Assembly: GCA_910588255.1 (NCBI GenBank)
Contig: CAJUOM010000002.1
Span: 15,470 to 79,469 of the forward strand
DNA length: 64,000 nt
DNA from: an uncultured Alphaproteobacteria bacterium
Lineage (GTDB): Bacteria; Pseudomonadota; Alphaproteobacteria; RUG11792
Direction: 5' to 3'
A program made the translations under genes and the position numbers. Every line of letters starts with the position of its first letter. The first letter of the stretch is position 1. Positions 1,536-64,000 of this stretch are shown here, piece after piece. The notes under the pieces were generated by a model that was not told the origin of the DNA, did not search any database, and was given only the letters and a program-made list of their open reading frames with translations.

Positions 1536-2147
1536 CTACGGCGGAGAGAACGCTGAAATATCAAGAATAATTGATAAAGTTTTGCATACATTATTCTTAA
1601 ATACTAAACAGTTTTTCACAACAATTCTCAGAAAATATCCATGATATGTAATACGTTTCAGGAAAACCGGAAACCTCCTCATACGAAGTCTATTTTCCAT
1701 TCTCCGCCTTGGAGCATCACATTCCTTCAGAAGTTTGATCATCGCTTCACGCTTTTGCTCCTCACGAATCTCCTTTTTCGAAGGTATATGACGTACGAGT
1801 TTCACATTACAAACATTCATCAAAAGCTTTTCGACATAATGCTTCGAAGGTGATCCAATCTCAGGAATTCTGAGATCTCTTGCAACAATCTCAATACCTC
1901 CATAATCGTCCATATCAGACTCATAACATCTGAAATTTAGACGAGATTCCATCGCGAGGAATAAGGTTTTCCCATGTCTATCATGAAGTTTTATAAGCTG
2001 AGGACGCATAAAATATTCCTCATATTTCTTATGAATTCTAATAAAAATCTCTGGTTTTTTGCGGTCATTAATGTAGCGATTATCAAACCTAATCTGCTGA
2101 AGTTTAATATCCTTATCACCACCCCAGATGGTCATATAAATTCTCAT
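1536..2147 (-). CDS. hypothetical 203-aa protein carried inside the repeat element (no recognisable family)
   Basis: The ATG at 2147 is preceded by AGGAG (2154-2158) with a 6-nt spacer. The ORF is basic and Arg-rich near the C-terminus (PRRRMENRLRMRRF). I see no HUH/Y1, DDE, CxxC zinc-finger, RT or Walker motifs. Composition looks slightly GC-richer than the neighbouring genes. Confidence 0.55.
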   Translation of the reverse strand: MRIYMTIWGGDKDIKLQQIRFDNRYINDRKKPEIFIRIHKKYEEYFMRPQLIKLHDRHGKTLFLAMESRLNFRCYESDMDDYGGIEIVARDLRIPEIGSPSKHYVEKLLMNVCNVKLVRHIPSKKEIREEQKREAMIKLLKECDAPRRRMENRLRMRRFPVFLKRITYHGYFLRIVVKNCLVFKNNVCKTLSIILDISAFSPP

Positions 2148-10961: not shown

Positions 10962-11560
10962 ATTTCTTATGCCGATATTAGTCAGCTAAAAAGCAAAACC
11001 CAAAAATAAAATAATATGGCTGCTGTATTCCTACTCTGACCAGGTTTTTAAGTTATTTCTGCAAATGCAAAATAGCTGACAATATTTATTATATCATGAT
11101 TTTGAATAACTTATATCAAAAATTTTCAACCTCTCTACATTAATAATATATCACAATGTCTTCCGAAAGCGCTATAGGTACCCCTGCGGTGTCATCAACT
11201 ATTTGCCGGTGAGGCCATCTTTCTAATTCACGTTTCGTGCAGTTACTCTTTTTTCTTTAAATCAACATTATTTCGCTCTTTCATTCGAAATACTTTCGTT
11301 GAGGTTAAATAAAATATGTTTTGGAATACTATAGCAGAGTAACAACTTCATCTATAGCTTTCAAAACGGTTTAATATATAACTTTTCTTACGAAAAGTTG
11401 GTTCCTGATTTGTCAAAAAACAATCGAAGATATCTTCTAGATTGATTTTTGCGATTTTTATTATAAAGGAACACTAGTCTTGGATTTCTAAATTGTGTTT
11501 TGTAAATACTATTTTGTTTCCAACAGCGTTTTTTAATAAATCAATCCTGTTTTTTGAGGG

Positions 11561-11608
11561 GCGCCCGTGAGTATGGTAGAATATTGATGGTACCATACTC
11601 ACGGGCGC
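11561..11608. repeat. GC-rich hairpin, type 2 (perfect 18-bp stem GCGCCCGTGAGTATGGTA / TACCATACTCACGGGCGC)
   Basis: Perfect inverted repeat with a 12-nt AT-rich loop. A shorter version is at 29056-29095. Confidence 0.85.
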
Positions 11609-11691
11609 ACTTTGTGACACGTAGCTATATTATTTTCCGAAAGGTAGGCAATATATTAAGTTAGTGAACATTACTACAAGTTCCTAATTTC

Positions 11692-11748
11692 AGGATACAT
11701 ACCTTGATTCGTGTATGTCAAATTCTAAAAAGTCCCATAAAATTTTAG
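11692..11748 (-). promoter_or_regulatory. repeat-borne promoter module (motif + TTGACA-18 nt-TATCCT, minus strand)
   Basis: The -35 (tgtcaa on the plus strand) is at 11716-11721 and the -10 (aggata) at 11692-11697. It points toward smr-dps. Confidence 0.4.
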
Positions 11749-11755
11749 ACTTTTT

Positions 11756-12779
11756 TTAACTCAAGGAAATATACTCACCAAAAGCAAGGGCTTTACTAGG
11801 ATTTTCTTTAGCCCAAGCCTCAAATCTAGAAGTAAAAAACTCGAATTTACTTTTTGAGATAGGATCAATATAACCGTATAAGGCTATCATATGTTTTAAG
11901 ATATCCTCTTTTGTTTTTTCTCTTAAAATTCCCGAAATATCAGAAATTGAATAATGAAGCTGATAAGCTCGGATTGAACTAGAACAGGATTCATATCCTA
12001 ACATTGAAATAAAATCTTTATAATCTCCATCATTGAGATCTCTAAAAGCCTCTAAATTAACTTTATGTGTCTCTGATGGCCAATATCCAACTCCAAATTC
12101 TTCAAAAGCTCTTTTATAATTCCACATAGGTCCTATATCACTTTTTCTGGAAGGGGAAAATATCAGCATGAGTTACAACATGATATCCTGGAATTCTATA
12201 ATGTTCTTGTAAATCTCGTGTGAAAGCTACACTTGCCACAAACTGCTCTTCACTGAACGGATACCAATAAACTTCAGATCCAGTTAGCTTTCGAGGAGCA
12301 GAAAATCCAGGAAAAACAACATTTGTTCTTTCAAATCCCGGATTGATATGTTCTATTCCTATTGAATAATAATTTAAACTTGTTTTCCCTGCAAAATAAG
12401 AAATTCCGGCATGATATGCTATATCAGTATCCGGATTAACAGTCTTATATATAATTCCATCATTGTCTATTGTGAAATGAGCAGAAACGCCTCTTTCATT
12501 ATATGTATTTATAGTTCCTCTAAGAGAAGCTCCAGCGGTATAGTGCAATACAATAAATTGATGTAAATCTTCTTTATATTGTTCAAGAGTTGCCGGTTTG
12601 GAAGGATTTGTCCAAAGCCTATAAGATTCTTCCCATGTTCGATGTGTGACTCCGTTTGTTCTAACTTTATTATCCAAATAGCAGTCTACAGTTCGATATC
12701 GAGAAGAATCAAGAGGACTTTCAGCAGCTTGAGTACAACATATGCATGAAAGCATTACTAAACAATTCAATATTTTCAT
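11756..12779 (-). pseudogene. periplasmic N-acetylmuramoyl-L-alanine amidase (AmpD/AmiD, amidase_2 type) split by a frameshift
   Basis: ORFs 12138-12779 (signal peptide, HYTAG, IGIEH) and 11756-12169 overlap. Frame 1 ends HADIFPFQKK*. Frame 2 continues IFSPSRKSDIGPMW, which is the conserved HADI.P.RK.DPGP motif. The shift lies in the T4C4 run (plus strand GGGGAAAA, 12153-12160). Confidence 0.7.
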
Positions 12780-13236: not shown

Positions 13237-14817
13237 TGAAGTAAGTAACCTCTCTCTTTTCAGAATCTTTTCTATATTTTATATAACCATATTTCCCATT
13301 AAAATCGGAACCAGAGATATAAAACGTTTTTCCATCTTCATTCGGATTAATTATTTCGTATCCCAGCAATCGTGTTATAAATTTTGCTATTTCATAATGA
13401 TTCGGTTTGTAAATTTTCTTAAAATTATCTAAAAATTCCCTATCATTACTTTGAACAATAACCGGAATATCTGCACACCTTTCATTGAGATGTCCATGAC
13501 CAAACAGGCCATTCTCTCCTAAAAATTCATTATGATCTGATGCCCAAATTATATAAAATTTCCCGATTTTCTGTTTGTTAAAATATTTAAACAAAGAAGA
13601 TATCACATAGTCATTATACACCATAGCGTTGTCATACTCGTCAATAACAGAATTTCGGATTCGGAGAATTGTCTCCTGTTTAAAAAATCTTTACTAAACA
13701 CTTTTGAATACGGAGTATGGACACATCTTTGATGAAGAACTATGAAATTATGTTTGGAGAAAGTTTGTTGATTTAAAACCGTTATTATATACTGATCCGT
13801 ATATATATCGAAATTTTTATCCCGTGATGCTGTTCTTATTTCATCTATATATTTTTTCCCGGAAATAATACTAATAAGCCCTTCCAATTGATCTGAAATA
13901 TAGAAAGTCTTAAATCCATTTTCTTTTGCTAATTTAAATAAATTAGTCGTATCACTGTATGATAACTGGGTATTGTCAGGTTCTCCTATAACATTCATCA
14001 TAAATTTTAATGAAGATTTAGTATTTATTCCTCCTGCTATACCTTTCGTATAATAAAAATTAGATTCCCTTGATAATTTAAATAAATCAGGGGTAGTATT
14101 CCTTTCATAACCAAACAACGACATATGTCTATAATTTGCACTTTCTCCTAATATATAAACTATGAAGATAGGTTCGTTATTTAAAGAAGTTTTCGCTATA
14201 ACATAGGGTTTATATGATTTTGGATTATAGCCTCTGAATGATAAATCCAGAAAACAAGAGAAGCTTTTTAATGTATTATCAATAGTGAAACGATATTCAT
14301 TTGCCGTGCTATTTCTTATAAAGCAATTGGAATAATATATCCCCCCAAAAGTTGCAAAAAGTATTACTATGCCGAAATGCGACTTGAAGCTTTTGAATTT
14401 CAATATCGGAATCATTAACATAAAAGGGATAATCACAATTAAAACAGTTTTCCAATATTTGAAATACACATTTCTGGCTTCTTGAAAAACATCTTGATAT
14501 TCGTCAAAAAACTGATAGAAGTCATAAGGAGATAATTGACTTCCAAAATATGAAATATGGGCAAACTGTATCATTTGGAGAAAGAAAAGAAAAACTATGC
14601 AAAAAACAGGAAAAAACTTGCTTTTATTAATAATTAGCCCAAAGCATAAGGGAATAAGTAATTTAAATATATTTAACTTATCAGAGCAAACAAAAGAAGA
14701 ATTTACAAATTGATATAAATAATCTGAAAGCATGAATAAACATGCTAATATTAAGGTTGCTGATATTGTGATAATTGTGTTTCTTAAATTAAACTTATTC
14801 CGCATTATTATACTCAA
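13226..14817 (-). pseudogene. phosphoethanolamine transferase (EptA/sulfatase family) paralogue, frameshifted
   Basis: ORFs 13603-14817 and 13226-13624 together align with the intact neighbour. Frame 1 reads FSESEILLLTS. The other frame reads IDEYDNAMVYNDYVISS, against FSGSLTPLIDEYDNAMLYNDHIISS in the intact copy. This implies a 1-nt loss near 13646-13650. Confidence 0.7.
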
Positions 14818-16381
14818 TTCTTCTCTTTTTAGAATCTTTCTTATATTTTATATGACCACATTTACCATTGAAATCCACACCAGAGATAAAAAATGTTTCT
14901 CCGTCTTCATTTGGATTAACTATTTCATATCCCAGCAACCGAGCTATAAATTTTGTTATTTCATAATGATTGGGCTTATAAATTTTCTTAAAATTATTCA
15001 GAAACTCTTTGTCATTGCTTTGAATAATAACAGGAATATCTGCAGTAATAGGGACTAATGTTCCATGCCCATGACCAAACGAACCATTTTCTCCAAGTAA
15101 ATCATTATGATCCGACGCCCAAATTATATAAAATTTTCCGATTTTCTGTTTGTTAAAATAGTTAAACAAAGAAGATATTATATGATCGTTATAAAGCATA
15201 GCATTATCATATTCGTCAATAAGAGGAGTTAAAGACCCCGAAAATTTATGTTTAAATTTAAAATTTTTACTGACAGCTTTTGCATAAGGCGTGTGTATAC
15301 ATCTTTGATGAATCACTATAAAATTACGATTTGTAAATTTCTGACTTTGAATCATTTCAAAAAGTAAGTCATCCATTATTTTTTCTGATTTCTTGACTTC
15401 AGAGTCTTTTGTTCTTAATACATCTATATAAGGTATTCCTGAAATACTACCCAATAAATGCTCTGATTGATTCGATAAATAAAATGTTTTAAATCTATTT
15501 GTTTTTGCAATCCTAAATAAATTTGTCGAGTCACTTGCTGCTTGTATGGGGTTATCCGCCTCTCTTAAAGAATTCAGCATAAACTTACAGGATGCTATAG
15601 TGCAAATAGCACCGGATATTCCTTTGGTGTAATAAACATTTGATTGTTTTACTAAAGTTTTCAATTCAGGTGTTGTTTCTCTTTTATAATTAAACAAAGA
15701 CATATGTTTGCAGTTAGCACTCTCCCCTAATATATAAATTATATTCACAGGTTCTTCGAAGCTACTTTTTATAACTATAATTTCATAAGGTTTATAATCC
15801 TTCACGGGCAATTTTTTATATTCTATAACTAAATATCCCCAAAATGCCTTAAAAGAATTATCTAAAGTAAAACGTACTCCATTTGGATTAAATCTTGGCA
15901 AATGCCTGGTATAATACTTATATCCATAAGAGCAAAATGTAATTAGCAATATCAATGTGCCTATGATTGATTTTCTTTTATTTTTCATAATGCAATACGA
16001 TATTCCTCCAAAAGGAACAATAATCAGCGGAATAATATACCAATAATCATAAAAAGCATTTCCTGCTTCTTGAAATGTGTCTTGGATTTCTCTAAAAAAC
16101 AAATAAACTGAATAAGGAGAAAGAAAATTTCCAAAGTATGCCAAACTAGAAAATTGCATTATTTGAGCCAAACATAAAATAATTATGCAAAAATATGATA
16201 TTAATTTAAATCTGTTAATTACTAACCCAAAACTCAAAGGTACTATCAATGCCAGCACCTTTATGTCATGAGATAATTTAAATTTTTGATTTATAAATGA
16301 AAAAATTATATCAGGAAGTATTAAAAGAAAAGCAACAATAAATATCAATAATATTGTTTTATTCAGGCTATTAAATTTCAT
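14795..16381 (-). CDS. phosphoethanolamine transferase (EptA/sulfatase family), intact
   Basis: 528 aa. A five-TM N-domain is followed by a sulfatase domain with GESANCKHMSLFNYKRETTPEL, HQRCIHTPY, YDNAMLYND and ASDHNDLLGENGSFGHGH. Confidence 0.75.
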   Translation of the reverse strand: MKFNSLNKTILLIFIVAFLLILPDIIFSFINQKFKLSHDIKVLALIVPLSFGLVINRFKLISYFCIIILCLAQIMQFSSLAYFGNFLSPYSVYLFFREIQDTFQEAGNAFYDYWYIIPLIIVPFGGISYCIMKNKRKSIIGTLILLITFCSYGYKYYTRHLPRFNPNGVRFTLDNSFKAFWGYLVIEYKKLPVKDYKPYEIIVIKSSFEEPVNIIYILGESANCKHMSLFNYKRETTPELKTLVKQSNVYYTKGISGAICTIASCKFMLNSLREADNPIQAASDSTNLFRIAKTNRFKTFYLSNQSEHLLGSISGIPYIDVLRTKDSEVKKSEKIMDDLLFEMIQSQKFTNRNFIVIHQRCIHTPYAKAVSKNFKFKHKFSGSLTPLIDEYDNAMLYNDHIISSLFNYFNKQKIGKFYIIWASDHNDLLGENGSFGHGHGTLVPITADIPVIIQSNDKEFLNNFKKIYKPNHYEITKFIARLLGYEIVNPNEDGETFFISGVDFNGKCGHIKYKKDSKKRRIEYNNAE

Positions 16382-17606: not shown

Positions 17607-19670
<2,064 letters not shown>

Positions 19671-19687
19671 ATTGACGGAAAAAATCT

Positions 19688-19711
19688 CTAAAATTTTATG
19701 GGACTTTTTAA
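19688..19711 (+). repeat. solo copy of the 24-nt motif CTAAAATTTTATGGGACTTTTTA(A)
   Basis: A 23/24 match to the motif in the repeat promoter modules. It lies just after ligA and 320 nt upstream of the pfk pseudogene. No clear -35/-10 follows. Confidence 0.7.
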
Positions 19712-20034: not shown

Positions 20035-21186
20035 ATGATTTTTAAGTTTGTCTTAACAATTGTAGGTAGTTTTTTAATTGCATTTGGAAATATAACAAAT
20101 GCAATTTCCGCAGAAAAACCTAGGATAGGAATATTAACCTCCGGAGGAGATTGTTCTGGGCTAAACTCTACAATATATGCGACTTATAAAAAAGCAACAG
20201 ATTTGGGATATGAGGTTATAGGTTTCAAACATGGAGTCCACGGATTGGTAAACTGAGATTATATTGTTTTGAATAAAGAAATATGCACACCGGATATTTT
20301 AAGAAAAGGTGGAAGCATCTTAAAATCCAATACAAAAGCCTTAAAAGACAAATTTGGAAATCCTTTATCAAAAGAAGATGGAGACAAAGCCATCATTCGA
20401 GAATATCATAAATTGAAGCTACAAGGATTGATTTATATAGGAGGAGATGGAAGTATCGGATTAATGAAAAATATACTTCAAAAAGACCAATCCTTAAATA
20501 TCATAGCAATTCCGAAAACAATAGATAATGATATCGCAAACACAGATGTTTCCGTAGGCTTCTCAACTGTAACAAAAGTAGTGGAAGAAGAAATTTCAAA
20601 TATAATAACAACAGCACAAAGTCATAGTCGAATTATGGTAATTGAAGTTATGGGAAGAGGCGCGGGATACATAGCCTTAAGTTCAGGATTGGCAATTGGT
20701 GCAGACGCGATAATTATCCCTGAAATGAAATGTAATATGAATAATCTTATTGCAAAAATTAAAGATGTTTATAATTCCGGAAAAGATTATAGTATTATAG
20801 TTGTGTCAGAGGGAGTTGAGTTCGATGAGTTTAAATATAAAAATACGAAATTCTCTGACGTTATTTCAAGGAAAGACTATGGAGGAGTTTCTAATTTTAT
20901 AGTTAAAAAATTAAAAGAGGCCGGATTTGATGCCAAAGCTGTCATACTGGGGCATACTCAAAGAGGTGGAATCACATCTGTTGAAGACAGAATTTTAGCT
21001 CAGAAATTCGGAATAACAGCTGTTCAATTGATCGCAAACAAAGATTGCGGATATTTGCTGGGAATTCTGAATAACAAGATTTCCAAAACAAAGCTTTCAG
21101 ATATAAGAAAAACAACGAGAAATTTAACTCCAAATGATCCTAATATTATCTTAGCTCAAAATTTAGGAATTTATATAGGCGGATAA
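20035..21186 (+). pseudogene. 6-phosphofructokinase paralogue interrupted by an in-frame TGA
   Basis: ORFs 20035-20256 and 20269-21186 are in the same frame, separated by a TGA at 20254-20256 (GLVN*DYIVLNKE). PFK motifs GGDCSGLN, GGDGS, PKTIDND and MGRGAG are present. It carries an unusual hydrophobic 28-aa N-terminal extension. Confidence 0.7.
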
Positions 21187-28199: not shown

Positions 28200-28973
28200 A
28201 TGGTTAAGAAACGTATACAACATAAGAAAAAACATTCGAGATATTTTGTAAAATATCTTTTATTGCTTCTCATCGTAGGTGGCGGGATTTATTCTTTTTC
28301 TAATTATATATATAGTTTTTTTACTTTTATCCATAGTTCCATACCTCAAACTATGGGTTTTTCAATTGATCATATAAATATTTCTGGAGCGAATAAAAAA
28401 ACTCAAAGATTGATTTTTGAAAACATAGGAATATCAAAAGGAGAGTGTATACTTAAATTATCAACTCAGAAAATTTTTTCTAATATTTCCAAAATCAATT
28501 GGGTAAAATCTGTAGTTGTTCAAAAAATTCTCCCAAATAGTATTAATATAAAAATAAAAGAAAGAACACCAATTGCTATATTTCAAAATGGGTCAGGAGC
28601 AATTCTGATAGATAAAAGTGGAAATCTCATTGAAAAAATAAAAACTAGACTCCCTAATATTCCTATAATCTCTGGAGGAAACGCAAACTTCAACGTGAAA
28701 TATATTTTAGATCTTATTTCTCAATACAAAGATTTGCGAGATAACCTTGATTCATTGACTTATATTCGAGAAAGGCGTTGGAATATCATTCTTTCAGGAA
28801 TAAAAGTCTTGCTTCCTGAAACAGAAATAGAGAAAGCCTTAGAAATTTTATCAACTATACTGAAAACAGGAAAAATAAATAAAAATACAGTCAGTAAAAT
28901 TGACTTAAGAACACCAGAAAATGTTATATTCAGTAAGTTAAAACTAACTAACAGAGGCTCTTTAATTTTATAA
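28200..28973 (+). CDS. ftsQ: cell division protein FtsQ
   Basis: 257 aa. One N-terminal TM segment, a POTRA-like region (I.I.G....T......) and an FtsQ-type C-domain (V.KILPN.I.I.I.ER.PIA). Confidence 0.7.
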   Translation: MVKKRIQHKKKHSRYFVKYLLLLLIVGGGIYSFSNYIYSFFTFIHSSIPQTMGFSIDHINISGANKKTQRLIFENIGISKGECILKLSTQKIFSNISKINWVKSVVVQKILPNSINIKIKERTPIAIFQNGSGAILIDKSGNLIEKIKTRLPNIPIISGGNANFNVKYILDLISQYKDLRDNLDSLTYIRERRWNIILSGIKVLLPETEIEKALEILSTILKTGKINKNTVSKIDLRTPENVIFSKLKLTNRGSLIL

Positions 28974-29055
28974 TTTTTATGTCTACCGAAAGCACTATAG
29001 AATTCCTGTGGCGATGATTTATACATTTTTGAGAATTCAAGCTTTTTGAAGGCAC

Positions 29056-29095
29056 CCGTGAGTATGGTATAATATCAAGCGTACCATACTCACGG
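29056..29095. repeat. GC-rich hairpin, type 2 (14-bp stem CCGTGAGTATGGTA / TACCATACTCACGG)
   Basis: Same stem core as 11561-11608, with a different loop. Confidence 0.8.
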
Positions 29096-29107
29096 ATACC
29101 AAACATT

Positions 29108-29752
29108 TCATTCTAGATCATATGCTAAGGCCCAGCTTATAATATTCCTGTAATCTCGGATAGGATAATAACCTGGCATAAATTCATTAAATCTTTCAGC
29201 CAAAAAATTCATTAGGAAAAATATTTTTTCGATTTTTTTATCATCATAACCTTTTGCTTTTAATGAAGTTTTTATTTTTTCCTGATCTTCAAAAAGTTCA
29301 GATTCATTACCTTGTATCTGATCAACAGGAATAAGTATTTCATTTATTTCTAAAAACTTTTTCAAAAAGAACTTAGATAAAAAATTTATTCTCATCGGAA
29401 TATAATCTGATAAATCCCATTTGCTAGAATCTTCACTATCAGCAAAAGATTTATATTCATCAATTAGATTCCTTAAAGAATGAGAATTTCGTTTTTTGCA
29501 AAATTCAGTAAAACGAGAGTTTTCATCATCTTCTTCATAAGAGAAATGCTTATTATTAAAAGCATCCTTTTCATCTTCAGTCAAAGGAGTGTTTATTTTT
29601 TCCTCTACATCATATTTCAAATCATCAAGATCTGTATTAAAGAAAGTAGGATTCGAAGCTGTATAAAGCAAAATATTTTCAGCTAATGAAGTTTCACATA
29701 TAGTTATACAATTTAACAAAAGCATAACTGGTAATAATTTTAAGATTTTCAT
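29108..29752 (-). CDS. hypothetical secreted protein (214 aa)
   Basis: N-terminal signal peptide (LLLNCITICETSLA), then an acidic Asp/Glu-rich sequence. No recognisable domain. Confidence 0.5.
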   Translation of the reverse strand: MKILKLLPVMLLLNCITICETSLAENILLYTASNPTFFNTDLDDLKYDVEEKINTPLTEDEKDAFNNKHFSYEEDDENSRFTEFCKKRNSHSLRNLIDEYKSFADSEDSSKWDLSDYIPMRINFLSKFFLKKFLEINEILIPVDQIQGNESELFEDQEKIKTSLKAKGYDDKKIEKIFFLMNFLAERFNEFMPGYYPIRDYRNIISWALAYDLE

Positions 29753-29850
29753 AAATCTAACAATATATTTATTATATATTGTGTATATGTGATTGTCAAT
29801 ATTTTTGAGAAATATAATTACAAAACAATCCTATGCGTTCTTAATTTCAG

Positions 29851-29905
29851 AATATACAACTTGATTCATACCTGTCAAACTCTAAAAAGTCCCATAAAAT
29901 TTTAG
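29851..29905 (-). promoter_or_regulatory. repeat-borne promoter module (motif + TTGACA-16 nt-TATATT, minus strand) driving the 214-aa ORF
   Basis: The -35 (tgtcaa) is at 29873-29878 and the -10 (aatata) at 29851-29856. The ORF start at 29752 is about 90 nt downstream. Confidence 0.5.
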
Positions 29906-29983
29906 GAATTTTTATACGCTTAAAAAATCACTTATCAATCTAAATAAGCCTCTATTACTGGAATTTTAAAAAATCATGTTATT

Positions 29984-42755: not shown

Positions 42756-43256
42756 TCAGCGTATTTCATTATCAAATACACCAAAAACATCTGATTTCTT
42801 TATCCACCCCCGATATTTTTCTCCGCCACTATAAATCTTTACTTCACACCATTTTCCACGAACTGCAATCAATTCCATAATTACATTTTTCTTAATAAGT
42901 GCAATCAAATTTGAATTATCATTTGAATCGGACATAAGTTTTGCCGAAGTATTATTTGTCGTCATCACAAACCTTTTTGAAGAAAGTAAACTTTTATGAA
43001 TCCAGCTTTCACTTCCAAAAGGATCTTTTATCTTTCTCCAATGATCATATTTTGCAATAATCATAACAGGCATCCCTTTTTGAATATATTCAAAACTTAT
43101 CTTATATTCTTTTCCAGGCCCTCTATGAGAATTAGCTTTATTTGATTTTATCGAAGCATAATAAGGATCACAAATCCCGCTTTTTATAAACGCAAAAGTC
43201 TCATCCGCAAGCAAAAATAAAAATAAGAGTAAATATATGGTTTTTCTATATCTCAC
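42756..43256 (-). CDS. SH3-like domain protein (COG3807/DUF1058 type)
   Basis: Signal peptide, then the pattern N.HRGPG..Y.I...Y...G.PV.IIA.YD.WRKI.D..G.E.WIH.S.LS..R and WC.V......GWI. Confidence 0.7.
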   Translation of the reverse strand: MRYRKTIYLLLFLFLLADETFAFIKSGICDPYYASIKSNKANSHRGPGKEYKISFEYIQKGMPVMIIAKYDHWRKIKDPFGSESWIHKSLLSSKRFVMTTNNTSAKLMSDSNDNSNLIALIKKNVIMELIAVRGKWCEVKIYSGGEKYRGWIKKSDVFGVFDNEIR

Positions 43257-44337
43257 CTATATAGACCCCTAAATTTCTCGCAGCTTTGACATATTCATTA
43301 TTTAAATCCAGAACCTTATTGACGCTTTTTATTACATCAGAAATATTCATTGTTTTTAATCTATTTTCAGAAAACAACAAGACTTTTCCAGAAACTTTCT
43401 TGTCTATAAGATTAATAGCCTCAAGTCCAAATAAAGTTCCAAGTAACCTATCATTAATACAAGTTTTTCCTCCTCTTTGAACATGCCCTAGAGTGACGCA
43501 TCGTGATTCAATACCAGTTTCCTTTATTTTACTCACCAAATGTTGCCCTATACCTCTATATGCCAAATGTGAATATTTCATTACTCCATCAACATTTTCC
43601 ACATTATGCTTAAAATCACTATCTTCAACAGACTCAGCAACAACTACAATACAATAATTTTTTCCATTTGAAAAACATTCTTTTACTTTGTTTTTCACTT
43701 TTTCAATATCATATTTAAATTCTGGAACAAGAATAATATCAGCTCCTGAAGCTATTCCTGCATACATTGCAATAAATCCGGCATCTCTTCCCATAACTTC
43801 AACAACCATAGCTCTCTCATGGCTTTTTGCAGTTGATCTGATATTTTCAACAGCTGAAACGACAACCTCTAAAGAAGTTTGAAAACCAATGGAATAATCG
43901 GTATAATTAACGTCATTATCAATAGTTTTAGGAATAAAAGCTATATTTAAATTTTCATTTTTAATAAGCAGTTCGTTTATTAATCGAAGACTGCCATCCC
44001 CGCCAACACAAACCAATCCTTCCAATTCGAGTTTTTTATAGCCCTCGTGAATCATATTCTTTATGTCTTCTATAGACTTTCCGGATTCTATAGTTGATGA
44101 CATCCATTTTGTGTCGGAAAGAATAATACTACCCGAATTCGTCAACATGTCTTCATTACAAAGTTTATCAGTAAGTTTTATAAAGTCAATAGGATCATTT
44201 GCAAGAGCTCTTATTCCCCTTTTTAATCCCAATAATTCATACCCAAGGTTTTTTGCTCTGATAAAAGCAGCTCTTATGACTGAGTTTAATCCGGAACAAT
44301 CTCCACCCACAGTTAGTATTCCTATTCTTTTCTTCAT
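43246..44337 (-). CDS. pfkA: 6-phosphofructokinase, intact
   Basis: 363 aa with RIGILTVGGDCSGLN, GGDGS, PKTIDND, MGRDAG and GH.QRGG. Confidence 0.85.
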   Translation of the reverse strand: MKKRIGILTVGGDCSGLNSVIRAAFIRAKNLGYELLGLKRGIRALANDPIDFIKLTDKLCNEDMLTNSGSIILSDTKWMSSTIESGKSIEDIKNMIHEGYKKLELEGLVCVGGDGSLRLINELLIKNENLNIAFIPKTIDNDVNYTDYSIGFQTSLEVVVSAVENIRSTAKSHERAMVVEVMGRDAGFIAMYAGIASGADIILVPEFKYDIEKVKNKVKECFSNGKNYCIVVVAESVEDSDFKHNVENVDGVMKYSHLAYRGIGQHLVSKIKETGIESRCVTLGHVQRGGKTCINDRLLGTLFGLEAINLIDKKVSGKVLLFSENRLKTMNISDVIKSVNKVLDLNNEYVKAARNLGVYIGEI

Positions 44338-44468
44338 ATATGTCGTTTGTTCAAACTTAACAAATTAGGATATAATCATTTTTTATATTAACATTCTTTA
44401 AACAAAATTTCAAAAAGTATCTTAAATTGGAATTAAAATACACATTCATAAAAACATCTTAAAAACAC

Positions 44469-44501
44469 CTAAAACTTTAAGGGACTATTTATGATTTGAC
44501 A
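44469..44501 (+). repeat. degenerate copy of the 24-nt motif plus TTGACA
   Basis: CTAAAACTTTAAGGGACTATTTAT followed by TTGACA (44496-44501). No good -10 is visible. Confidence 0.5.
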
Positions 44502-44577
44502 TGAAAGAAGGGGAAGAGGAACACTGAATAGCGTTCTCACTAGTTCCCCAATACTTCTCTTCATTAAGTATTGAATT

Positions 44578-45016
44578 TCAAACGTAGAAACCTATACTTT
44601 TTTCCCGAGCAATACTTCTAAATCTTTCCTTTAATTTATCCCCTATGTTATTATTGGTTAGACTAAGGTGATTAATAACTGTACTTGGCAGAATTTTAGC
44701 AAGTGCTCGTATTTCTTCTGCTCCTATATTTTTAGACCTTAGATTAATTCTTTCGCGGATGGTATTTTTTTCTAAAAGTTCTCGAGCTCTATCTAAAGCA
44801 ATTTGAGATATTGGTTCTTCTGCTTGAGGAGCCTGAAGTGATAATCTATTATCTAAAACACTTTGAACAGCTGCTAACTGATCTGTTAAGAAACCCTTTA
44901 AAGTAGTTAATTGCTCTATATTGAAGTTATCAAACGTGTTTTTTTGTTGAAGCAGTAACTTCCATACTTCCCAACATTATGGAAAGCATACTTATTCCTA
45001 ATAATATTTTTTTCAC
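44578..45016 (-). pseudogene. small secreted leucine-rich-repeat (RNI-like) protein, frameshifted in an A7 run
   Basis: Not in the ORF track. The GTG at 45016 gives MKKILLGISMLSIMLGSMEVTASTKKHV*. The neighbouring frame continues QKNTFDNF...INLRSKNIGAEEIRALAKILPSTVINHLSLTNNNIGDKLKERF...GFYV* to the TGA at 44578-44580. The switch lies at the homopolymer 44939-45 (T7 on the plus strand). Confidence 0.5.
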
Positions 45017-45141
45017 AATCTTTCTCCTGTAATAAATTTAACTTATATCCATATTATATCGAATATTATATCAAAAAGCAAGGGAAAAATATATTTATTT
45101 CGTACTTATAAAATAAGTAATAGAAACGTCAAGAAAATTTA

Positions 45142-45198
45142 TTAAAATTTTATGGGACTTTTTAGAGTTTGACTTGTGGAAAGAACGAGGAATATACT
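45142..45198 (+). promoter_or_regulatory. repeat-borne promoter module (motif + TTGACT-18 nt-TATACT) pointing at tRNA-Leu-rpmI-rplT
   Basis: Motif at 45142-45165, -35 at 45169-45174, -10 at 45193-45198. Confidence 0.5.
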
Positions 45199-45216
45199 GA
45201 AATTATAGAGGATATA

Positions 45217-45269
45217 CAGGTGCGCGGCGTGTGGTGAAATTAACGAGTATGCCACACGCCGCGCTCCTG
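45217..45269. repeat. GC-rich hairpin, type 1
   Basis: GCGCGGCGTGTGG / CCACACGCCGCGC, extended by CAGG/CCTG. Confidence 0.8.
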
Positions 45270-45595
45270 AATGCCTCATTCCGATTTGATTACATATAAA
45301 CCCTTCCACCCTAGGGATGGATGTTAGTTAACCTTAAACCATATTGAAGAAGTTGTGACTTTACAATTAACCTATCAAAATAAGTCACTGCACGAAGCAT
45401 GAATTAGAAAGAAGACCTCACCGGAAAACTTCATTGACACCGCAGAGGTACCTATAGCGCTTTCGCAAGGCATAAAGATTATAAAACAACCAGATAGATC
45501 TGTCTTAGTAAAACAATGTTTTTTAAAAAATAGCATAAATTGAATTTATGAACTTGACAAATAACGTAAAAGCTAGTAAATTTAAGAAGTAAGCT

Positions 45596-45681
45596 GCCTG
45601 CTTGGTGGAATTGGTAGACACAACAGACTTAAAATCTGTCGCCCAATCGGCTTGCCGGTTCGAGTCCGGCAGCAGGTACCA
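45596..45681 (+). tRNA. tRNA-Leu (TAA)
   Basis: 86 nt, long variable arm, anticodon loop CTTAAAA, T-arm GGTTCGAGTCC, encoded CCA. Confidence 0.85.
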
Positions 45682-45710
45682 AGTTTATATTATATGTGTT
45701 TTGAGGAATT

Positions 45711-45905
45711 ATGAAATTAAAAACAAAAAGCAGTGCAAAAAAGCGTTTTCGTTTTACGGCTTCAGGTTTGGTAAAAACTGCACAATGTGGTAAACGCCAT
45801 AATATGCGTAAAAGGGGCAATAAAATGCTGAGAAATGCCAGAGGGATGACTTTGATGCATCCAAGCGATGCCAAGAAAGTCTCAACTTTTTATTTTCATG
45901 TATAA
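45711..45905 (+). CDS. rpmI: 50S ribosomal protein L35
   Basis: 64 aa, basic, with MKLKTKSSAKKRFRFTASG. Followed by rplT. Confidence 0.85.
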   Translation: MKLKTKSSAKKRFRFTASGLVKTAQCGKRHNMRKRGNKMLRNARGMTLMHPSDAKKVSTFYFHV

Positions 45906-45923
45906 TTTTTAGGAGATTTATTT

Positions 45924-46361
45924 ATGGCACGTGTAAAAAGAGGTATGACAGCACATGCAAGACACAGAAAAGTTTTGACTTTATCAAAAGGATTCAGAGG
46001 CCGCTCTTCAACTTGCTTTAGACCAGCTCTTGAGAGATTAGAAAAATCTTGGCAATATGCTTATAGAGACAGGAAAGTAAAGAAAAGAGAAATGAGAGCA
46101 CTTTGGATTCAAAGAATTAATGCTGCAGTCAGAGAATTCGGTTTGAAATATTCAACATTTATCAATAGATTATCAAAGGCAAAGATCTCTATAGATAGAA
46201 AGATATTAGCAAAATTTGCAGTAGAAAATCCTGAAATTTTAAAAAATTTAGTTTCTAAGATTCAAACCGGAAACACAGCTACTGATTCTTCTGAAAAATT
46301 AGCCCAACAAGCTCTTGCAAAAAGGACAAGAACAACGAAAAAAGCTACAGTAGAGGCTTAG
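45924..46361 (+). CDS. rplT: 50S ribosomal protein L20 (with a ~25-aa C-terminal extension)
   Basis: MARVKRG..A..RHKK.L...KG.RG...R....A and YAYRDRK..KR..R.LWI.RINAA. Confidence 0.9.
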
Positions 46362-46373
46362 TATGTGTTTTGA

Positions 46374-46457
46374 GCGGTCGTGGCGGAATTGGTAGACGCG
46401 CAGCGTTGAGGTCGCTGTGGAGAGATCCTGGAAGTTCGAGTCTTCTCGACCGCACCA
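46374..46457 (+). tRNA. tRNA-Leu (GAG)
   Basis: 84 nt. Acceptor GCGGTCG/CGACCGC, anticodon loop TTGAGGT, long variable arm, encoded CCA. Confidence 0.85.
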
Positions 46458-46472
46458 TTTAATGAGGCAGAT

Positions 46473-46967
46473 ATGAAAAGCTTTTTAAAAAAAGATATAA
46501 ATTCTGTTAGAAATTTATTATTATCTGTTGCCTTTTTGGCAATCAGTTCAAAAGTTGTGGTTCCTTTGTATCCTGTCCCTATTACATTGCAAATGTTTGC
46601 TGTTTATTTCTTAGGATTATTGCACACTCCTCGCGAATCATTTTCTGTTGTTTTATGTTGGCTTTTTATTGGTTCTATAGGCGTTCCGGTTTTTGCATCC
46701 AGTTTGGGAGGAATAAGCGGACCTACTGTTGGTTATTTGATTGGTATGTTATTTGGCACTCCTTTAATAAGTTTTCTGAAATCCAAAGGTATTTTGCTCA
46801 TGATGTCATGCGTTGCATGTTATTTTGTGGTTCATATATTAGGATGTTTATGGTTGGCAAATTTTGTTGGCTTTGAAAATGTTATACAACTTGGCGTAAT
46901 TCCTTTCATTGTTCCAGATTTGTTAAAAATGACTTTGGCCTGTTCTTTGGTTGCTTTGAAAAAATAG
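46473..46967 (+). CDS. bioY: biotin transporter BioY
   Basis: 164 aa with 5-6 TM segments and the BioY pattern (VP.T.Q.F.V...G......G......Y...G..G.PVF......G...L.GPT.GYL.G). Confidence 0.7.
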   Translation: MKSFLKKDINSVRNLLLSVAFLAISSKVVVPLYPVPITLQMFAVYFLGLLHTPRESFSVVLCWLFIGSIGVPVFASSLGGISGPTVGYLIGMLFGTPLISFLKSKGILLMMSCVACYFVVHILGCLWLANFVGFENVIQLGVIPFIVPDLLKMTLACSLVALKK

Positions 46968-54632: not shown

Positions 54633-54646
54633 TTCCAGAAAAATAT

Positions 54647-54679
54647 CTAAAATTTTATGGGACTTTTTATTTTTTGACA
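54647..54679 (+). repeat. solo 24-nt motif plus TTGACA
   Basis: CTAAAATTTTATGGGACTTTTTAT at 54647-54670 and TTGACA at 54674-54679. The -10 is weak. It points across tRNA-Val (antisense) toward the capsid gene. Confidence 0.6.
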
Positions 54680-54722: not shown

Positions 54723-54798
54723 TGGTGGTCGCAACAGGACTCGAACCTGTGACAACTGCGATGTGAACGCAGTGCTCTACCAACTGAGCTATACGACC
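54723..54798 (-). tRNA. tRNA-Val (CAC)
   Basis: 76 nt. The reverse complement is GGTCGTATAGCTCAGTTGGTAGAGCACTGCGTTCACATCGCAGTTGTCACAGGTTCGAGTCCTGTTGCGACCACCA. Anticodon loop TTCACAT. Confidence 0.85.
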
Positions 54799-54879: not shown

Positions 54880-55839
54880 ATGAATATACCTGAACAAAAT
54901 TTAAACGATATAAATATCGCAGACTCAAAAAAGTTTATAAACTTTTTGAAAGGAAACCAAGATACACATGAATCTATTGTTTTGCCAGCGTGTATAACAG
55001 ATTCTATTAGCAGCAAAATACAAGCTCTGAGTCCTATAAAATCACTTGCAAAAGTGACATATACTTCTGGAGACAGATTAGATATTGTTACTGATTCTGG
55101 AAAAGCCCAGGAATCAGGCTGGATAACTGACGAGTTGATAAAAAACAATGAGAATAATACAGTTTCAAAAATATCGATTTATCTGCATCAATTGTTTGCT
55201 AAACCAAGAGTTGCGCATAGCCTTTTAGAAGATCAAACAACAAATGTTGAAGAATTTATTCACGATAAAATAACTACTCAAATGGCTGCATCTGAAAATA
55301 AAGCGTTTTTGTTTGGAGATGGAATTTCTCAACCTAAAGGAATTTTAAGCTATGAAATTTCGACAGAAAGTCCAAAAGAACACCAAATTGAAGGCGTTAT
55401 TGGCGGTGTAAATGGAAAAATAACCGATTATACTAAGATTGTTGAAGTTATGGAAAAACTTCCTTCGAAATATCTTTCAGGTGCGACTTGGATTATGTCA
55501 AGAAACGCAGCTTCTCATATCAGAACACTTCGCGATGAGACAAATGGAAAATTCCTTTGGCAAAATTCGATAGCTCATGGTATCCCTGATACGCTTCTTG
55601 GCTATCCTGTCGTTATATGCGATGATATGCCGAAATTACACAAAACCGAGAATTGTACGCCGGTGTTATTTGCAAACTTGTATGAAGGTTATCAAATAGC
55701 AGAGAAGCCAACTATGAATATCTTGAAAGATCCATACAATGCAAAACCATTTGTTGAGTTTTATGCAACAAAAAGAATCGGTGGAGATGTTGTCAATTTC
55801 GACTCTATCAAAGCTTTAGTTTTGAAAAACGAAGAATAA
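54880..55839 (+). CDS. phage/GTA major capsid protein, HK97 family (short, little or no delta domain)
   Basis: 319 aa with FLFGDGISQPKGIL, ATWIMSRNAASHIRTLRDETNGKFLWQ and GYPVVICDDMP, as in HK97-type capsids. Confidence 0.7.
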   Translation: MNIPEQNLNDINIADSKKFINFLKGNQDTHESIVLPACITDSISSKIQALSPIKSLAKVTYTSGDRLDIVTDSGKAQESGWITDELIKNNENNTVSKISIYLHQLFAKPRVAHSLLEDQTTNVEEFIHDKITTQMAASENKAFLFGDGISQPKGILSYEISTESPKEHQIEGVIGGVNGKITDYTKIVEVMEKLPSKYLSGATWIMSRNAASHIRTLRDETNGKFLWQNSIAHGIPDTLLGYPVVICDDMPKLHKTENCTPVLFANLYEGYQIAEKPTMNILKDPYNAKPFVEFYATKRIGGDVVNFDSIKALVLKNEE

Positions 55840-59985: not shown

Positions 59986-61023
59986 TCACTGTCCATAATA
60001 CTCCAACCATCTTCGATCTGTATCAAATAAATTTCGAATATCTGTTATTCCGTTTTTCAACATAACAAGACGTTCTAATCCAAACCCAAAAGCAAAGCCA
60101 AAAGCTTCGTTCTCGATTCCGCAATTTTTGAATACATTGGGATGAACCATTCCAGCTCCCCCTAATTCAAGCCATTTATCTCCTTCTGGAGTTATTATCA
60201 ATTTTCCGTCTTTTTTGGTGTATCTGCAATCGACTTCCATTCCAGGCTCTGTAAATGGGAAAAAGCTAGGTCTGAATCTTATGGCAACATCTTCAACTTC
60301 AAAGAAAAATGCTAGAAATTTCTTTAATTCACTTTTTAGATGTCCAATAGTTATTGGTTTTCTATCAGCAACTAATCCTTCTATTTGATGAAACATAGGA
60401 GAATGAGTTGCATCCAATTGATCATTTCTATAGGTTTTTCCAATGGATATCATACGAACAGGAATTCCCCGCTCCTTCATAGTCCTGATTTGAACACATG
60501 ATGTGTGAGTTCTGAGTAATGTCTTGTTAAATCTTTCTAGATAGAAAGTATCATGACTTTGACGTGCTGGATGATGTTCCGGAATATTTAAAGCATCGAA
60601 ATTAAAGAAATCTGTCTCAACTTCAGGTCCATCTAAAACTAAAAATCCACGCGCTAAATAATGATTTCGGATTCTTCTTATAGATTGAGTTAGTATATGC
60701 AATCCTCCAAATGATGAATTTTCAACAGGAAGAGTTATATCTAATGTTTCATTTCTTAATTTTTCGGAAATTTCATACTCTTCCAACTTTTTCTTCTGAA
60801 GGCTGATGGCTGTTTCTATTTGGCTTTTGATATTATTCAGTCTTTCTCCAAAAGACTTTTTTTCATCACCAGAGAAATCTTTAAGAAGTCTAAACGCAGA
60901 TGTAATAACTCCGGATTTTCCAATTAATTCAGCTTTTGTTTTTTCCAAATCTTGAAAGGAAGTTATTCCCATAATGGATTTTACCCAATGGTCTAGATTT
61001 TTCTCTATTTCAATTAAAGCCAT
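59986..61023 (-). CDS. pheS: phenylalanyl-tRNA synthetase alpha subunit
   Basis: 345 aa with the class II motifs HP.R...DTFY, FRPSFFPFTEPG and GAGMVHPNV. There is no pheT next to it. Confidence 0.9.
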   Translation of the reverse strand: MALIEIEKNLDHWVKSIMGITSFQDLEKTKAELIGKSGVITSAFRLLKDFSGDEKKSFGERLNNIKSQIETAISLQKKKLEEYEISEKLRNETLDITLPVENSSFGGLHILTQSIRRIRNHYLARGFLVLDGPEVETDFFNFDALNIPEHHPARQSHDTFYLERFNKTLLRTHTSCVQIRTMKERGIPVRMISIGKTYRNDQLDATHSPMFHQIEGLVADRKPITIGHLKSELKKFLAFFFEVEDVAIRFRPSFFPFTEPGMEVDCRYTKKDGKLIITPEGDKWLELGGAGMVHPNVFKNCGIENEAFGFAFGFGLERLVMLKNGITDIRNLFDTDRRWLEYYGQ

Positions 61024-61128: not shown

Positions 61129-61484
61129 ATGTCTACCGAAAACGCTATAGGTGCCCCTGCGGTGTCATCAACCGTTTACCGGTGAGGCCATCTTTCTAAT
61201 TCACGCTTCGTGCAGTGACTTATTTTGATAGGTTAATTGTAAAGCCACAACTTCTTCAATATGGTTTAAGATTAACTAACATCCATCCCTAAGGTGGAAG
61301 GGTTTATTGGGTAATTTTTCGTAAGAAAAGTTGGAAATGAGGAGTTAAGGAAGCACGGCGTGTAATAAAATTAACGTGCATACCACACGCCGCGCGCCTG
61401 AATATTCTTTATATTTTCAGTATATTCCCTGTTATTTCCTTATGTCAAATCATAAATAGTCCCATAAAATTTTAGGTGTTTTTA
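61129..61484 (-). repeat. ORF-less copy of the modular repeat
   Basis: A module from 61129, B module (TTAACTAACATCCATCCCTAAGGTGGAAGGGTTTATT), decayed type-1 hairpin at 61353-61398, promoter module and motif at 61452-61475. Confidence 0.8.
61419..61475 (-). promoter_or_regulatory. repeat-borne promoter module (motif + TTGACA-18 nt-TATACT, minus strand) pointing at pheS
   Basis: The -35 (tgtcaa) is at 61443-61448 and the -10 (agtata) at 61419-61424. Confidence 0.5.
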
Positions 61485-63798: not shown

Positions 63799-63872
63799 TG
63801 GAGGCCGAGACCGGAATCGAACCGATATACAAGGATTTGCAGTCCTCTGCATAGCCATTCTGCCACTCGGCC
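63799..63872 (-). tRNA. tRNA-Cys (GCA)
   Basis: 74 nt. The reverse complement is GGCCGAGTGGCAGAATGGCTATGCAGAGGACTGCAAATCCTTGTATATCGGTTCGATTCCGGTCTCGGCCTCCA. Anticodon loop CTGCAAA. Confidence 0.85.
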
Positions 63873-63951
63873 AAATTTTATATATTAAGATTACTAATTT
63901 TATTAACTTTTTTCAAGATGTTTTGTTATGAATCTATTTTTGTAATATTGT

Positions 63952-64000
63952 GGTGCGCGGCGTGTGGTATACTCATTAATTTTACCACACGCCGCGCACC
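63952..64000. repeat. GC-rich hairpin, type 1, perfect 18-bp stem (at the window edge)
   Basis: GGTGCGCGGCGTGTGGTA-13 nt-TACCACACGCCGCGCACC. It has the same loop orientation as 2229-2278, so its promoter module would lie just beyond the window, pointing toward tRNA-Cys-accA. Confidence 0.85.

Follow-up and report, generated by a model that had tools for sequence, protein, structure and literature searches.

Does a dispersed repeat supply the promoter of a core translation operon? The question arises in the genome of an uncultured Holosporales-like alphaproteobacterium, where a repeat copy of about 340 bp, which we call S1, lies upstream of tRNA-Leu(taa), rpmI and rplT in the 64,000-nt stretch of DNA analysed here (the window; G+C content ~31%). 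The first-pass annotation had proposed that S1 provides the operon with its promoter and a ~280-nt structured leader, on the grounds that no other obvious promoter lies between the repeat and the tRNA. Our analysis favors a different answer. We put the probability at roughly 0.65 that S1 is a recent sense insertion upstream of an ancestral operon promoter, to which it adds at most a minor extra promoter. Within this explanation, the sequences directly support the insertion itself, the make-up of the repeat family, the conservation of the two promoters and the lack of the element in relatives, while the activity of either promoter, read-through and processing are inferred.

A repeat search within the window delimited S1 as a gene-less copy on the + strand at 45134-45473. 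All of its matches are to the reverse complement: 95% identity to 61174-61307, 84% to 61382-61474, 83% to 2230-2363 and 88% to 1312-1395. An ORF-less copy sharing its ends with the two other copies had been described before, and these matches bear that out. The order of modules in S1 is also that of the 1312-2367 and 61129-61484 copies, but S1 is genomically inverted, so that the collinearity claimed with 61129-61484 holds for module order and not for strand. S1 and the DNA that follows it consist of these parts:

45134-45164, + strand: 5' terminal motif, with its 22-nt core TAAAATTTTATGGGACTTTTTA at 45143-45164
45169-45198, + strand: S1 promoter TTGACT-18-TATACT, sigma-70-type, 10/12 consensus positions, facing tRNA-Leu
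45217-45269, + strand: GC-rich hairpin (18-bp stem, 15-nt loop, U-tract absent; -37.7 kcal/mol, z = -5.3)
45296-45344, + strand: module B (ATAAACCCTTCCACCCTAGGGATGGATGTTAGTTAACC...), 90% identical to 1439-1487 and inside the 95% match to 61174-61307
45345-45473, + strand: interior of the ORF-less subfamily and module A, ending in the 3' terminal motif TATAGCGCTTTCGCAAGGCAT (45453-45473)
45474-45553, + strand: native intergenic DNA from the end of S1 to the native promoter, homologous to element-free relatives from ~45497 on

S1 lacks ORF203, the gene of the full-length copy, and the spacer between its hairpin and module B is only ~30 nt. The ORFs found inside S1 are only 53-55 aa long and on the minus strand, and were judged spurious. 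A short ORF starting at the 3'-terminal ATG (MSTESAIG...) was likewise rejected as a real gene, its frame and length not being kept between copies. Directly upstream of S1 lies a minus-strand gene (window 44560-45010) with a signal-peptide-like start (VKKILLGISMLSIMLGSMEVTAS). It is frameshifted at an A run, and the other frame continues as leucine-rich-repeat-like sequence; the break points to a pseudogene, to a slippery site or to an error of assembly.

S1 belongs to a family of repeats with the following further members in the window, listed with the genes that they point at:

1312-2367, - strand: full-length copy (F), with 5' motif, promoter, hairpin, ORF203 (2147..1536), module B and module A
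295-1191, - strand: ispH, 120 nt downstream of F
61129-61484, - strand: second ORF-less copy (S2), pointing at pheS (59986-61023, minus strand), 105 nt downstream
11156-11756, - strand: variant c11, with the same two termini, another hairpin family (11560-11604) and no intact ORF
10987-11071, - strand: SRP RNA gene, 84 nt downstream of c11
28979-29913, - strand: variant c29, with the same two termini and a 214-aa ORF (29752..29108) as cargo
44460-44528, + strand: solo 5'-end remnant between pfk and the frameshifted gene, 95% identical to 61442-61484

The two ends define the family. The 22-nt 5' core occurs nine times in the window against 0.05 expected, seven times perfectly, and the 5' motif is identical in copies whose neighboring sequence has diverged; the 3' motif occurs five times against 0 expected. 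A fixed 5' terminus, made up of the 22-nt motif and the promoter, and a fixed 3' terminus (...TATAGCGCTTTCGGTAGACAT) enclose variable contents, namely ORF203, the 214-aa ORF, no intact ORF, or a short form. This short form is represented by S1, S2 and the 3' part of a copy at metagenomic locus L003. Because the interior of S1 and S2 is 95% identical, recurs in L003 and is unlike that of the full-length copy, the sequences indicate that the ORF-less form has been propagated as such. Compared by eye with the consensus sites of CtrA, DnaA and IHF, the 5' motif fits none of them. The 214-aa ORF of c29 has a signal-peptide-like N-terminus and no Pfam match, and c29 is the sole copy convergent with its neighbor (ORF 28200-28973).

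The hairpin is an optional and movable module: it is absent from L025, degenerate in L024 and placed 3' of the ORF in L002-L004 (CAUDEV01 MAG), and in c11 and c29 a second hairpin family replaces the first. The second hairpins (11560-11604 and 29051-29095) read GCGCCCGTGAGTATGGTA...TACCATACTCACGGGCGC, with ~-33 kcal/mol and z ~-8, and in both families the stem ends beside the loop in TGGTA/TACCA. Set against the hairpins at 2230-2278 and 45219-45267, the S2 hairpin (61350-61398) has flanks that run collinear with F but a loop that is the reverse complement of that in F, which suggests that the loop was inverted by recombination between the stem arms. The orientation of a hairpin loop is therefore no safe guide to the orientation of an element. 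A further hairpin copy at the window edge (63944-64000) is 96% identical to the 2230-2278 hairpin and lies 72 nt upstream of tRNA-Cys (63799-63872, minus strand), with no B or A modules between them; the remainder of this copy falls beyond the window. A solo 5' motif with TTGACA (54639-54679) closely follows the 3' end of tRNA-Val (54723-54798, minus strand), next to a phage-capsid-family gene (54880-55839). The same tRNA-Val arrangement recurs in orthologous position on a JGI metagenome contig (L023 7298-7339), and this tRNA-flanking motif is either a site conserved by the host or a hot spot of insertion. Another set of repeats in the window, three collinear direct-repeat blocks at 13253-13755 and 14822-15331 (78-85% identical, ~1570 nt apart), is unrelated to the element family; the blocks sit within minus-strand ORFs and look like tandem paralogous genes.

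Beyond the window, the family is lineage-specific and the lineage itself is rare. Scanning a genome collection yielded one MAG with five copies, mostly at contig ends, and a metagenome scan with the 22-nt motif yielded three loci, too few for a census. BLAST searches of plasmid and phage collections with the element and with ORF203 gave no match, and a literature search on the accession numbers and on Holosporales repeats found nothing relevant; the family is undescribed.

Downstream of S1, the intergenic DNA and the operon are arranged as follows:

45554-45582, + strand: native promoter TTGACA-17-TAAATT, 10/12 consensus positions, ending 13 nt before tRNA-Leu(taa)
45596-45681, + strand: tRNA-Leu(taa), starting 122 nt past the end of S1
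45711-45905, + strand: rpmI, 29 nt after tRNA-Leu(taa)
45924-46361, + strand: rplT, following rpmI
46374-46457, + strand: tRNA-Leu(gag), closing the conserved unit

The layout reported earlier, with a rightward TTGACT-18-TATACT facing a tRNA-Leu(TAA) ~120 nt past the element and rpmI-rplT beyond it, is correct. As only 29 nt separate tRNA-Leu(taa) from rpmI, the two are presumably co-transcribed. The statement that no other obvious promoter intervenes is false: a single promoter scan found both TTGACT-18-TATACT and TTGACA-17-TAAATT, with equal consensus scores, and the latter is phylogenetically conserved. Since the case for the repeat as "the" operon promoter rested on there being no other, it is left unsupported. 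The scan returned 8 promoter-like matches against 4.9 +/- 2.2 in shuffled sequences; such matches are common by chance in this AT-rich DNA, and hexamers alone therefore prove little.

We assessed the conservation of the native promoter across five rplT loci from relatives (L013, L016, L017, L020 and L029) whose L20 proteins are 80-94% identical to that of the window. The unit tRNA-Leu(taa)-rpmI-rplT-tRNA-Leu(gag) is present in 5/5, bioY comes next in the four loci that reach far enough, and tRNA-Leu(taa) starts ~130-165 nt downstream of the preceding gene, which is IcmF-like in three relatives, nth in L020 and an unassigned ORF in L029. Element sequence was found in none of the five. In two alignments, CTTGACA is invariant in the window and all five relatives, as are three bases of the -10 hexamer, its T, A and final T (TAAATT, or TAGTAT in L020), and all of them keep a constant distance from the tRNA. 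Homology between the window and the relatives spans ~45497 to the tRNA; farther upstream the sequences diverge. This invariance of the -35 and of key -10 bases in element-free relatives marks 45554-45582 as a phylogenetic footprint and as the ancestral, predicted promoter of the operon itself. Comparison with relatives lacking the repeat had been suggested earlier as a check on the promoter claim, and it went against that claim: all five keep the unit together with the native promoter, and the operon is hence not dependent on the repeat.

The L20 protein of the window (145 aa, 45924-46361) carries a lysine- and alanine-rich C-terminal extension of ~25-30 aa that is common to its closest relatives only, most homologues being 115-125 aa long.

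S1 sits ~80 nt upstream of the native -35. S1 is present at the tRNA-Leu site in all contigs recovered for this species, which come from several samples, and several short-read contigs break within module A. Because every one of these same-species contigs has the element, we regard the insertion as fixed in the species, as far as the sampled sequences indicate, and it is absent from the nearest sampled relative (L029, L20 90% identical). Neither a target-site duplication nor a clean empty site is definable at S1, where the upstream DNA is rearranged with respect to the relatives. Rearrangement breakpoints appear to coincide with repeat copies: in L020, ligA and nth immediately precede tRNA-Leu-rpmI-rplT, while in the window a solo 5' motif (19680-19710) and then a truncated second PFK gene (20269-21186) come after ligA (17622-19670), and the intact pfk (43246-44337) is adjoined by the solo remnant at 44460-44528.

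These observations bear on the proposal that TTGACT-18-TATACT is the main promoter of the operon and the element a functional structured leader. In its favor, the element promoter is intact, conserved within the family and preceded by a UP-like tract, a terminator is not predicted ahead of the tRNA, most family members point the same way as the gene that follows, and the element is present in all same-species contigs sampled. However, a conserved native promoter stands intact 13 nt upstream of the tRNA, five relatives have the same operon without the element, and the leader shows no conserved structure beyond one hairpin that is itself optional in the family, nor any Rfam match. We consider this proposal improbable. 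The part of the earlier promoter claim that survives is that an intact promoter is aimed at the operon with no predicted terminator in between; the conservation of the native promoter in element-free relatives speaks against the rest.

What, then, might the element promoter do? Its hexamers and their 18-nt spacing are kept in F, S1, S2, c11 and c29 and in copies from other metagenomes (L002, L024, L025 and L026), with the family consensus TTGAC(A/T)-18-TAT(A/C/T)CT, whereas the spacer sequence diverges. Such conservation of the hexamers across diverged copies suggests that the S1 promoter is probably genuine and active, and in full-length copies the element promoter is predicted to drive ORF203. 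From its position (~-40 to -65 of the element promoter) and its composition (A/T-rich apart from GGGAC), we infer that the 22-nt motif resembles an UP element; given this UP-like A/T tract, the S1 promoter could be the stronger of the two.

Transcription from S1 would have to cross a would-be leader of ~390 nt, which is untranslated. No intrinsic terminator is predicted in 44900-46500, and the hairpin has no U-tract, making read-through from S1 into tRNA-Leu plausible. Several features argue against efficient read-through: the leader has more C than G over 45235-45445 (C/G 1.3-2.3), a rho gene is present nearby (locus L007), and the GC duplex is a plausible RNase III substrate. These features lend some weight to the alternative that S1 is transcriptionally irrelevant, its promoter being weak or silenced or its transcript ended by Rho or cleaved at the hairpin, so that the copy is neutral DNA in a permissive site. 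The ~390-nt untranslated leader, with a C > G stretch of the Rho-loading kind, the nearby rho gene (L007), the 18-bp GC stem as a possible RNase III target and the chance frequency of promoter-like hexamers in AT-rich DNA would all fit. Conservation of the -35 and -10 across diverged copies nevertheless argues for a working promoter, and the strong sense bias of the family suggests that outgoing transcription matters to the host, which makes irrelevance unlikely.

The leader is also less structured, and longer, than had been proposed. At E-value thresholds, an Rfam search of 45050-45720 returned the tRNA only, the remaining hits being microRNA-type hairpin artefacts far below gathering scores, and at gathering thresholds no element or leader family was found in the whole window. 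No covariance model of a ribosomal-protein leader RNA (e.g. the Rfam L20 leader) matched within 45050-45720. RNAalifold applied to modules B and A of seven copies gave a covariation term of -0.49, which is weak and does not support any conserved RNA structure other than the hairpin. Of the ~280-nt structured leader, one hairpin stands; its length would be ~390 nt, no other conserved structure was found and Rfam holds no match, so that "structured leader" essentially amounts to that hairpin.

Under the preferred reading, a gene-less modular repeat would have entered the species recently in sense orientation, ~80 nt upstream of a pre-existing -35. The ancestral TTGACA-17-TAAATT (45554-45582) would remain the principal operon promoter and would give a leader of a few nucleotides that is removed by RNase P. 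The element promoter is probably active as well and, as no terminator follows it, may add a minor long transcript with a ~390-nt leader; this transcript would then undergo processing at the tRNA, unless Rho, or RNase III acting at the hairpin, shortened it first.

A similar arrangement recurs at other insertion sites. The 3' end of the element lies 52-127 nt upstream of a same-strand gene in 8/9 scorable copies, namely F (ispH), S2 (pheS), S1 (tRNA-Leu), c11 (SRP RNA gene), L004, L005, L006 and L026 (PhzF-family gene). The exception is c29 (one-sided binomial p ~0.02, our own arithmetic with n=9). At the S2 site, relatives L030-L032 (pheS 83-86% identical) have no element, and the stretch from S2 to pheS contains an extended -10 (TGATATCAT) that L031 shares. 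The pattern suggested by these sequences is one of insertions just upstream of retained native promoters, in sense orientation. It fits selection against antisense insertion of a promoter-bearing, terminator-less unit, and it equally fits targeted insertion. Dependence of host genes on the element does not follow from this bias, which could also reflect host co-option of element promoters, a view closer to that of the first-pass annotation.

To place the family among known systems, we compared it with several classes of intergenic repeat. As in MITEs, the ORF-less form is short (343 bp), multicopy, non-coding and propagated as such. The repeat search detected no terminal inverted repeats within a copy, and direct reading of the alignments shows the 5' end (..CTAAAATTTTATGGGACTTTTTA) and the 3' end (TATAGCGCTTTCGGTAGACAT) to be unrelated in either orientation. 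No target-site duplication common to the copies is visible in the flanks of 10 of them, and the rearranged upstream flanks of the relatives offered no clean empty site for comparison. Derivation from a transposase-encoding parent is not indicated, since ORF203 matches no transposase family. The absence of inverted-repeat ends and the Holosporales-like host likewise separate the family from Correia repeat-enclosed elements (CREEs), described in PMC2649163 as able to generate promoters at either or both ends and to bind IHF and RNase III. Like the CREEs of Neisseria, the present repeats are small, abundant, gene-less and intergenic, can give promoters to adjacent genes and yield transcripts with RNase III-type duplexes. 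CREEs, however, are bounded by terminal inverted repeats and create promoters at their ends. In the present family the two ends differ, a single internal promoter near one of them reads across the entire element, modules can be swapped and one form bears an ORF; the sequences are not similar, and the hosts belong to different lineages.

The operational class of putative mobile promoters, near-identical promoter segments upstream of non-homologous genes within a genome as PMC3575422 presents them, does accommodate the family. The 5' motif, -35 and -10 precede ORF203, the 214-aa ORF (ORF214), no ORF at all, and the host gene tgt (L026). Two differences stand out: here the promoter belongs to a longer repeat, of which it forms one end and whose 3' terminus is defined, and the native promoter is retained at tRNA-Leu and pheS rather than replaced. 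In REP/REPIN-RAYT and IS200/IS605 systems, GC-rich hairpins of similar size are dispersed in intergenic DNA, as are the two hairpin families here; the hairpin of the present family, in contrast, is optional and lies away from the element termini, and neither the sequence nor the fold of ORF203 points to the Y1 (HUH) transposase of those systems. Pneumococcal BOX elements and Rickettsia palindromic elements (RPEs), like our family, are abundant in small or host-restricted genomes and are built from short modules that some copies lack or carry in another order; no transposase is known for them either. RPEs often sit within genes, and neither class is known to be defined by a conserved end made of an UP-like motif and a promoter. 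The mosaic make-up of our family resembles theirs when compared by description, Rfam giving no match. We file the family as a promoter-carrying, non-autonomous intergenic repeat, a broad known kind, and within no named family.

The lack of inverted-repeat ends and of a recognizable transposase also raises the question of whether these are mobile elements at all. The 5' motif and promoter might instead be regulatory DNA of the host, a transcription-factor or UP site that defines a regulon and that recombination has spread, the copies being promoter cassettes maintained by the host. Even solo copies preserve the 22-nt motif perfectly, and the motif occupies an orthologous position by tRNA-Val in another metagenomic genome (window 54648, L023), and heads unrelated cargo and host genes such as tgt (L026). 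A regulatory site would not, however, account for hundreds of bases of non-promoter similarity (modules B and A, 80-95% identity) or for a fixed 3' terminus without obvious regulatory role in ORF-less copies; the copies interrupt contigs, which dispersed repeats typically do, and they are absent from orthologous sites in relatives. We regard a host regulatory unit as highly improbable.

If the family is mobile, ORF203 is the protein to consider. It has 16 close homologues, most exactly 203 aa long and 64-100% identical, and an HMM search of 1.84 billion representative proteins added 17 remote relatives of 175-227 aa, none with a Pfam domain. These homologues indicate a real, conserved protein. 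ORF203 belongs to no family in Pfam, NCBIfam, PHROGs or PADLOC, and a sequence-profile search of the PDB returned nothing; Y1_Tnp gave no match at E <= 1, nor did the fold search. In the confident AlphaFold model (pLDDT 85.8), the N-terminal part is a beta-rich domain and the C-terminal part a long helical hairpin. Foldseek searches of the PDB with two AlphaFold models found a weak resemblance to Hcp/tail-tube proteins (E 0.016-0.04, and ~0.04 for the confident model; query-normalised TM-score 0.24-0.31). We file ORF203 neither as an Hcp nor as a transposase; in the models, it has no recognizable transposase or recombinase fold. ORF203 (1536-2147, minus strand) and its remote relatives share a conserved C-terminal tripeptide (APT, SPP or TPP) and the motifs KKYE, FHD..G, FR(C/Y)YE.D and G..SK.Y..K.L.

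A bolder idea would make the family a new kind of mobile cassette. Such a cassette would have fixed, non-inverted 22-nt/21-nt termini and interchangeable cargo, would land 50-130 nt upstream of genes in sense orientation with a strong UP-like promoter, and would be moved by the non-canonical protein ORF203, a beta-barrel joined to a long helical hairpin and ending in the conserved APT/SPP tripeptide, or by some other factor acting in trans. Collectively, the insertions would rewire housekeeping transcription, including that of tRNA-Leu-rpmI-rplT, in a reduced symbiont genome. We consider this scenario rather improbable.

For the organism, the ancestral operon promoter is intact, and the repeat is therefore not needed. 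If read-through from S1 is true, a selfish repeat would have added a second promoter to a core translation operon in a reduced, endosymbiont-like genome, a further example of repeats rewiring expression where regulators are scarce. Besides correcting the promoter claim, the analysis catalogues an undescribed modular repeat family with a conserved promoter and an orientation bias, and flags ORF203 as a conserved protein without assigned function. The family itself, with its fixed termini, swappable cargo, orientation bias and uncharacterised protein, is the more interesting thread.
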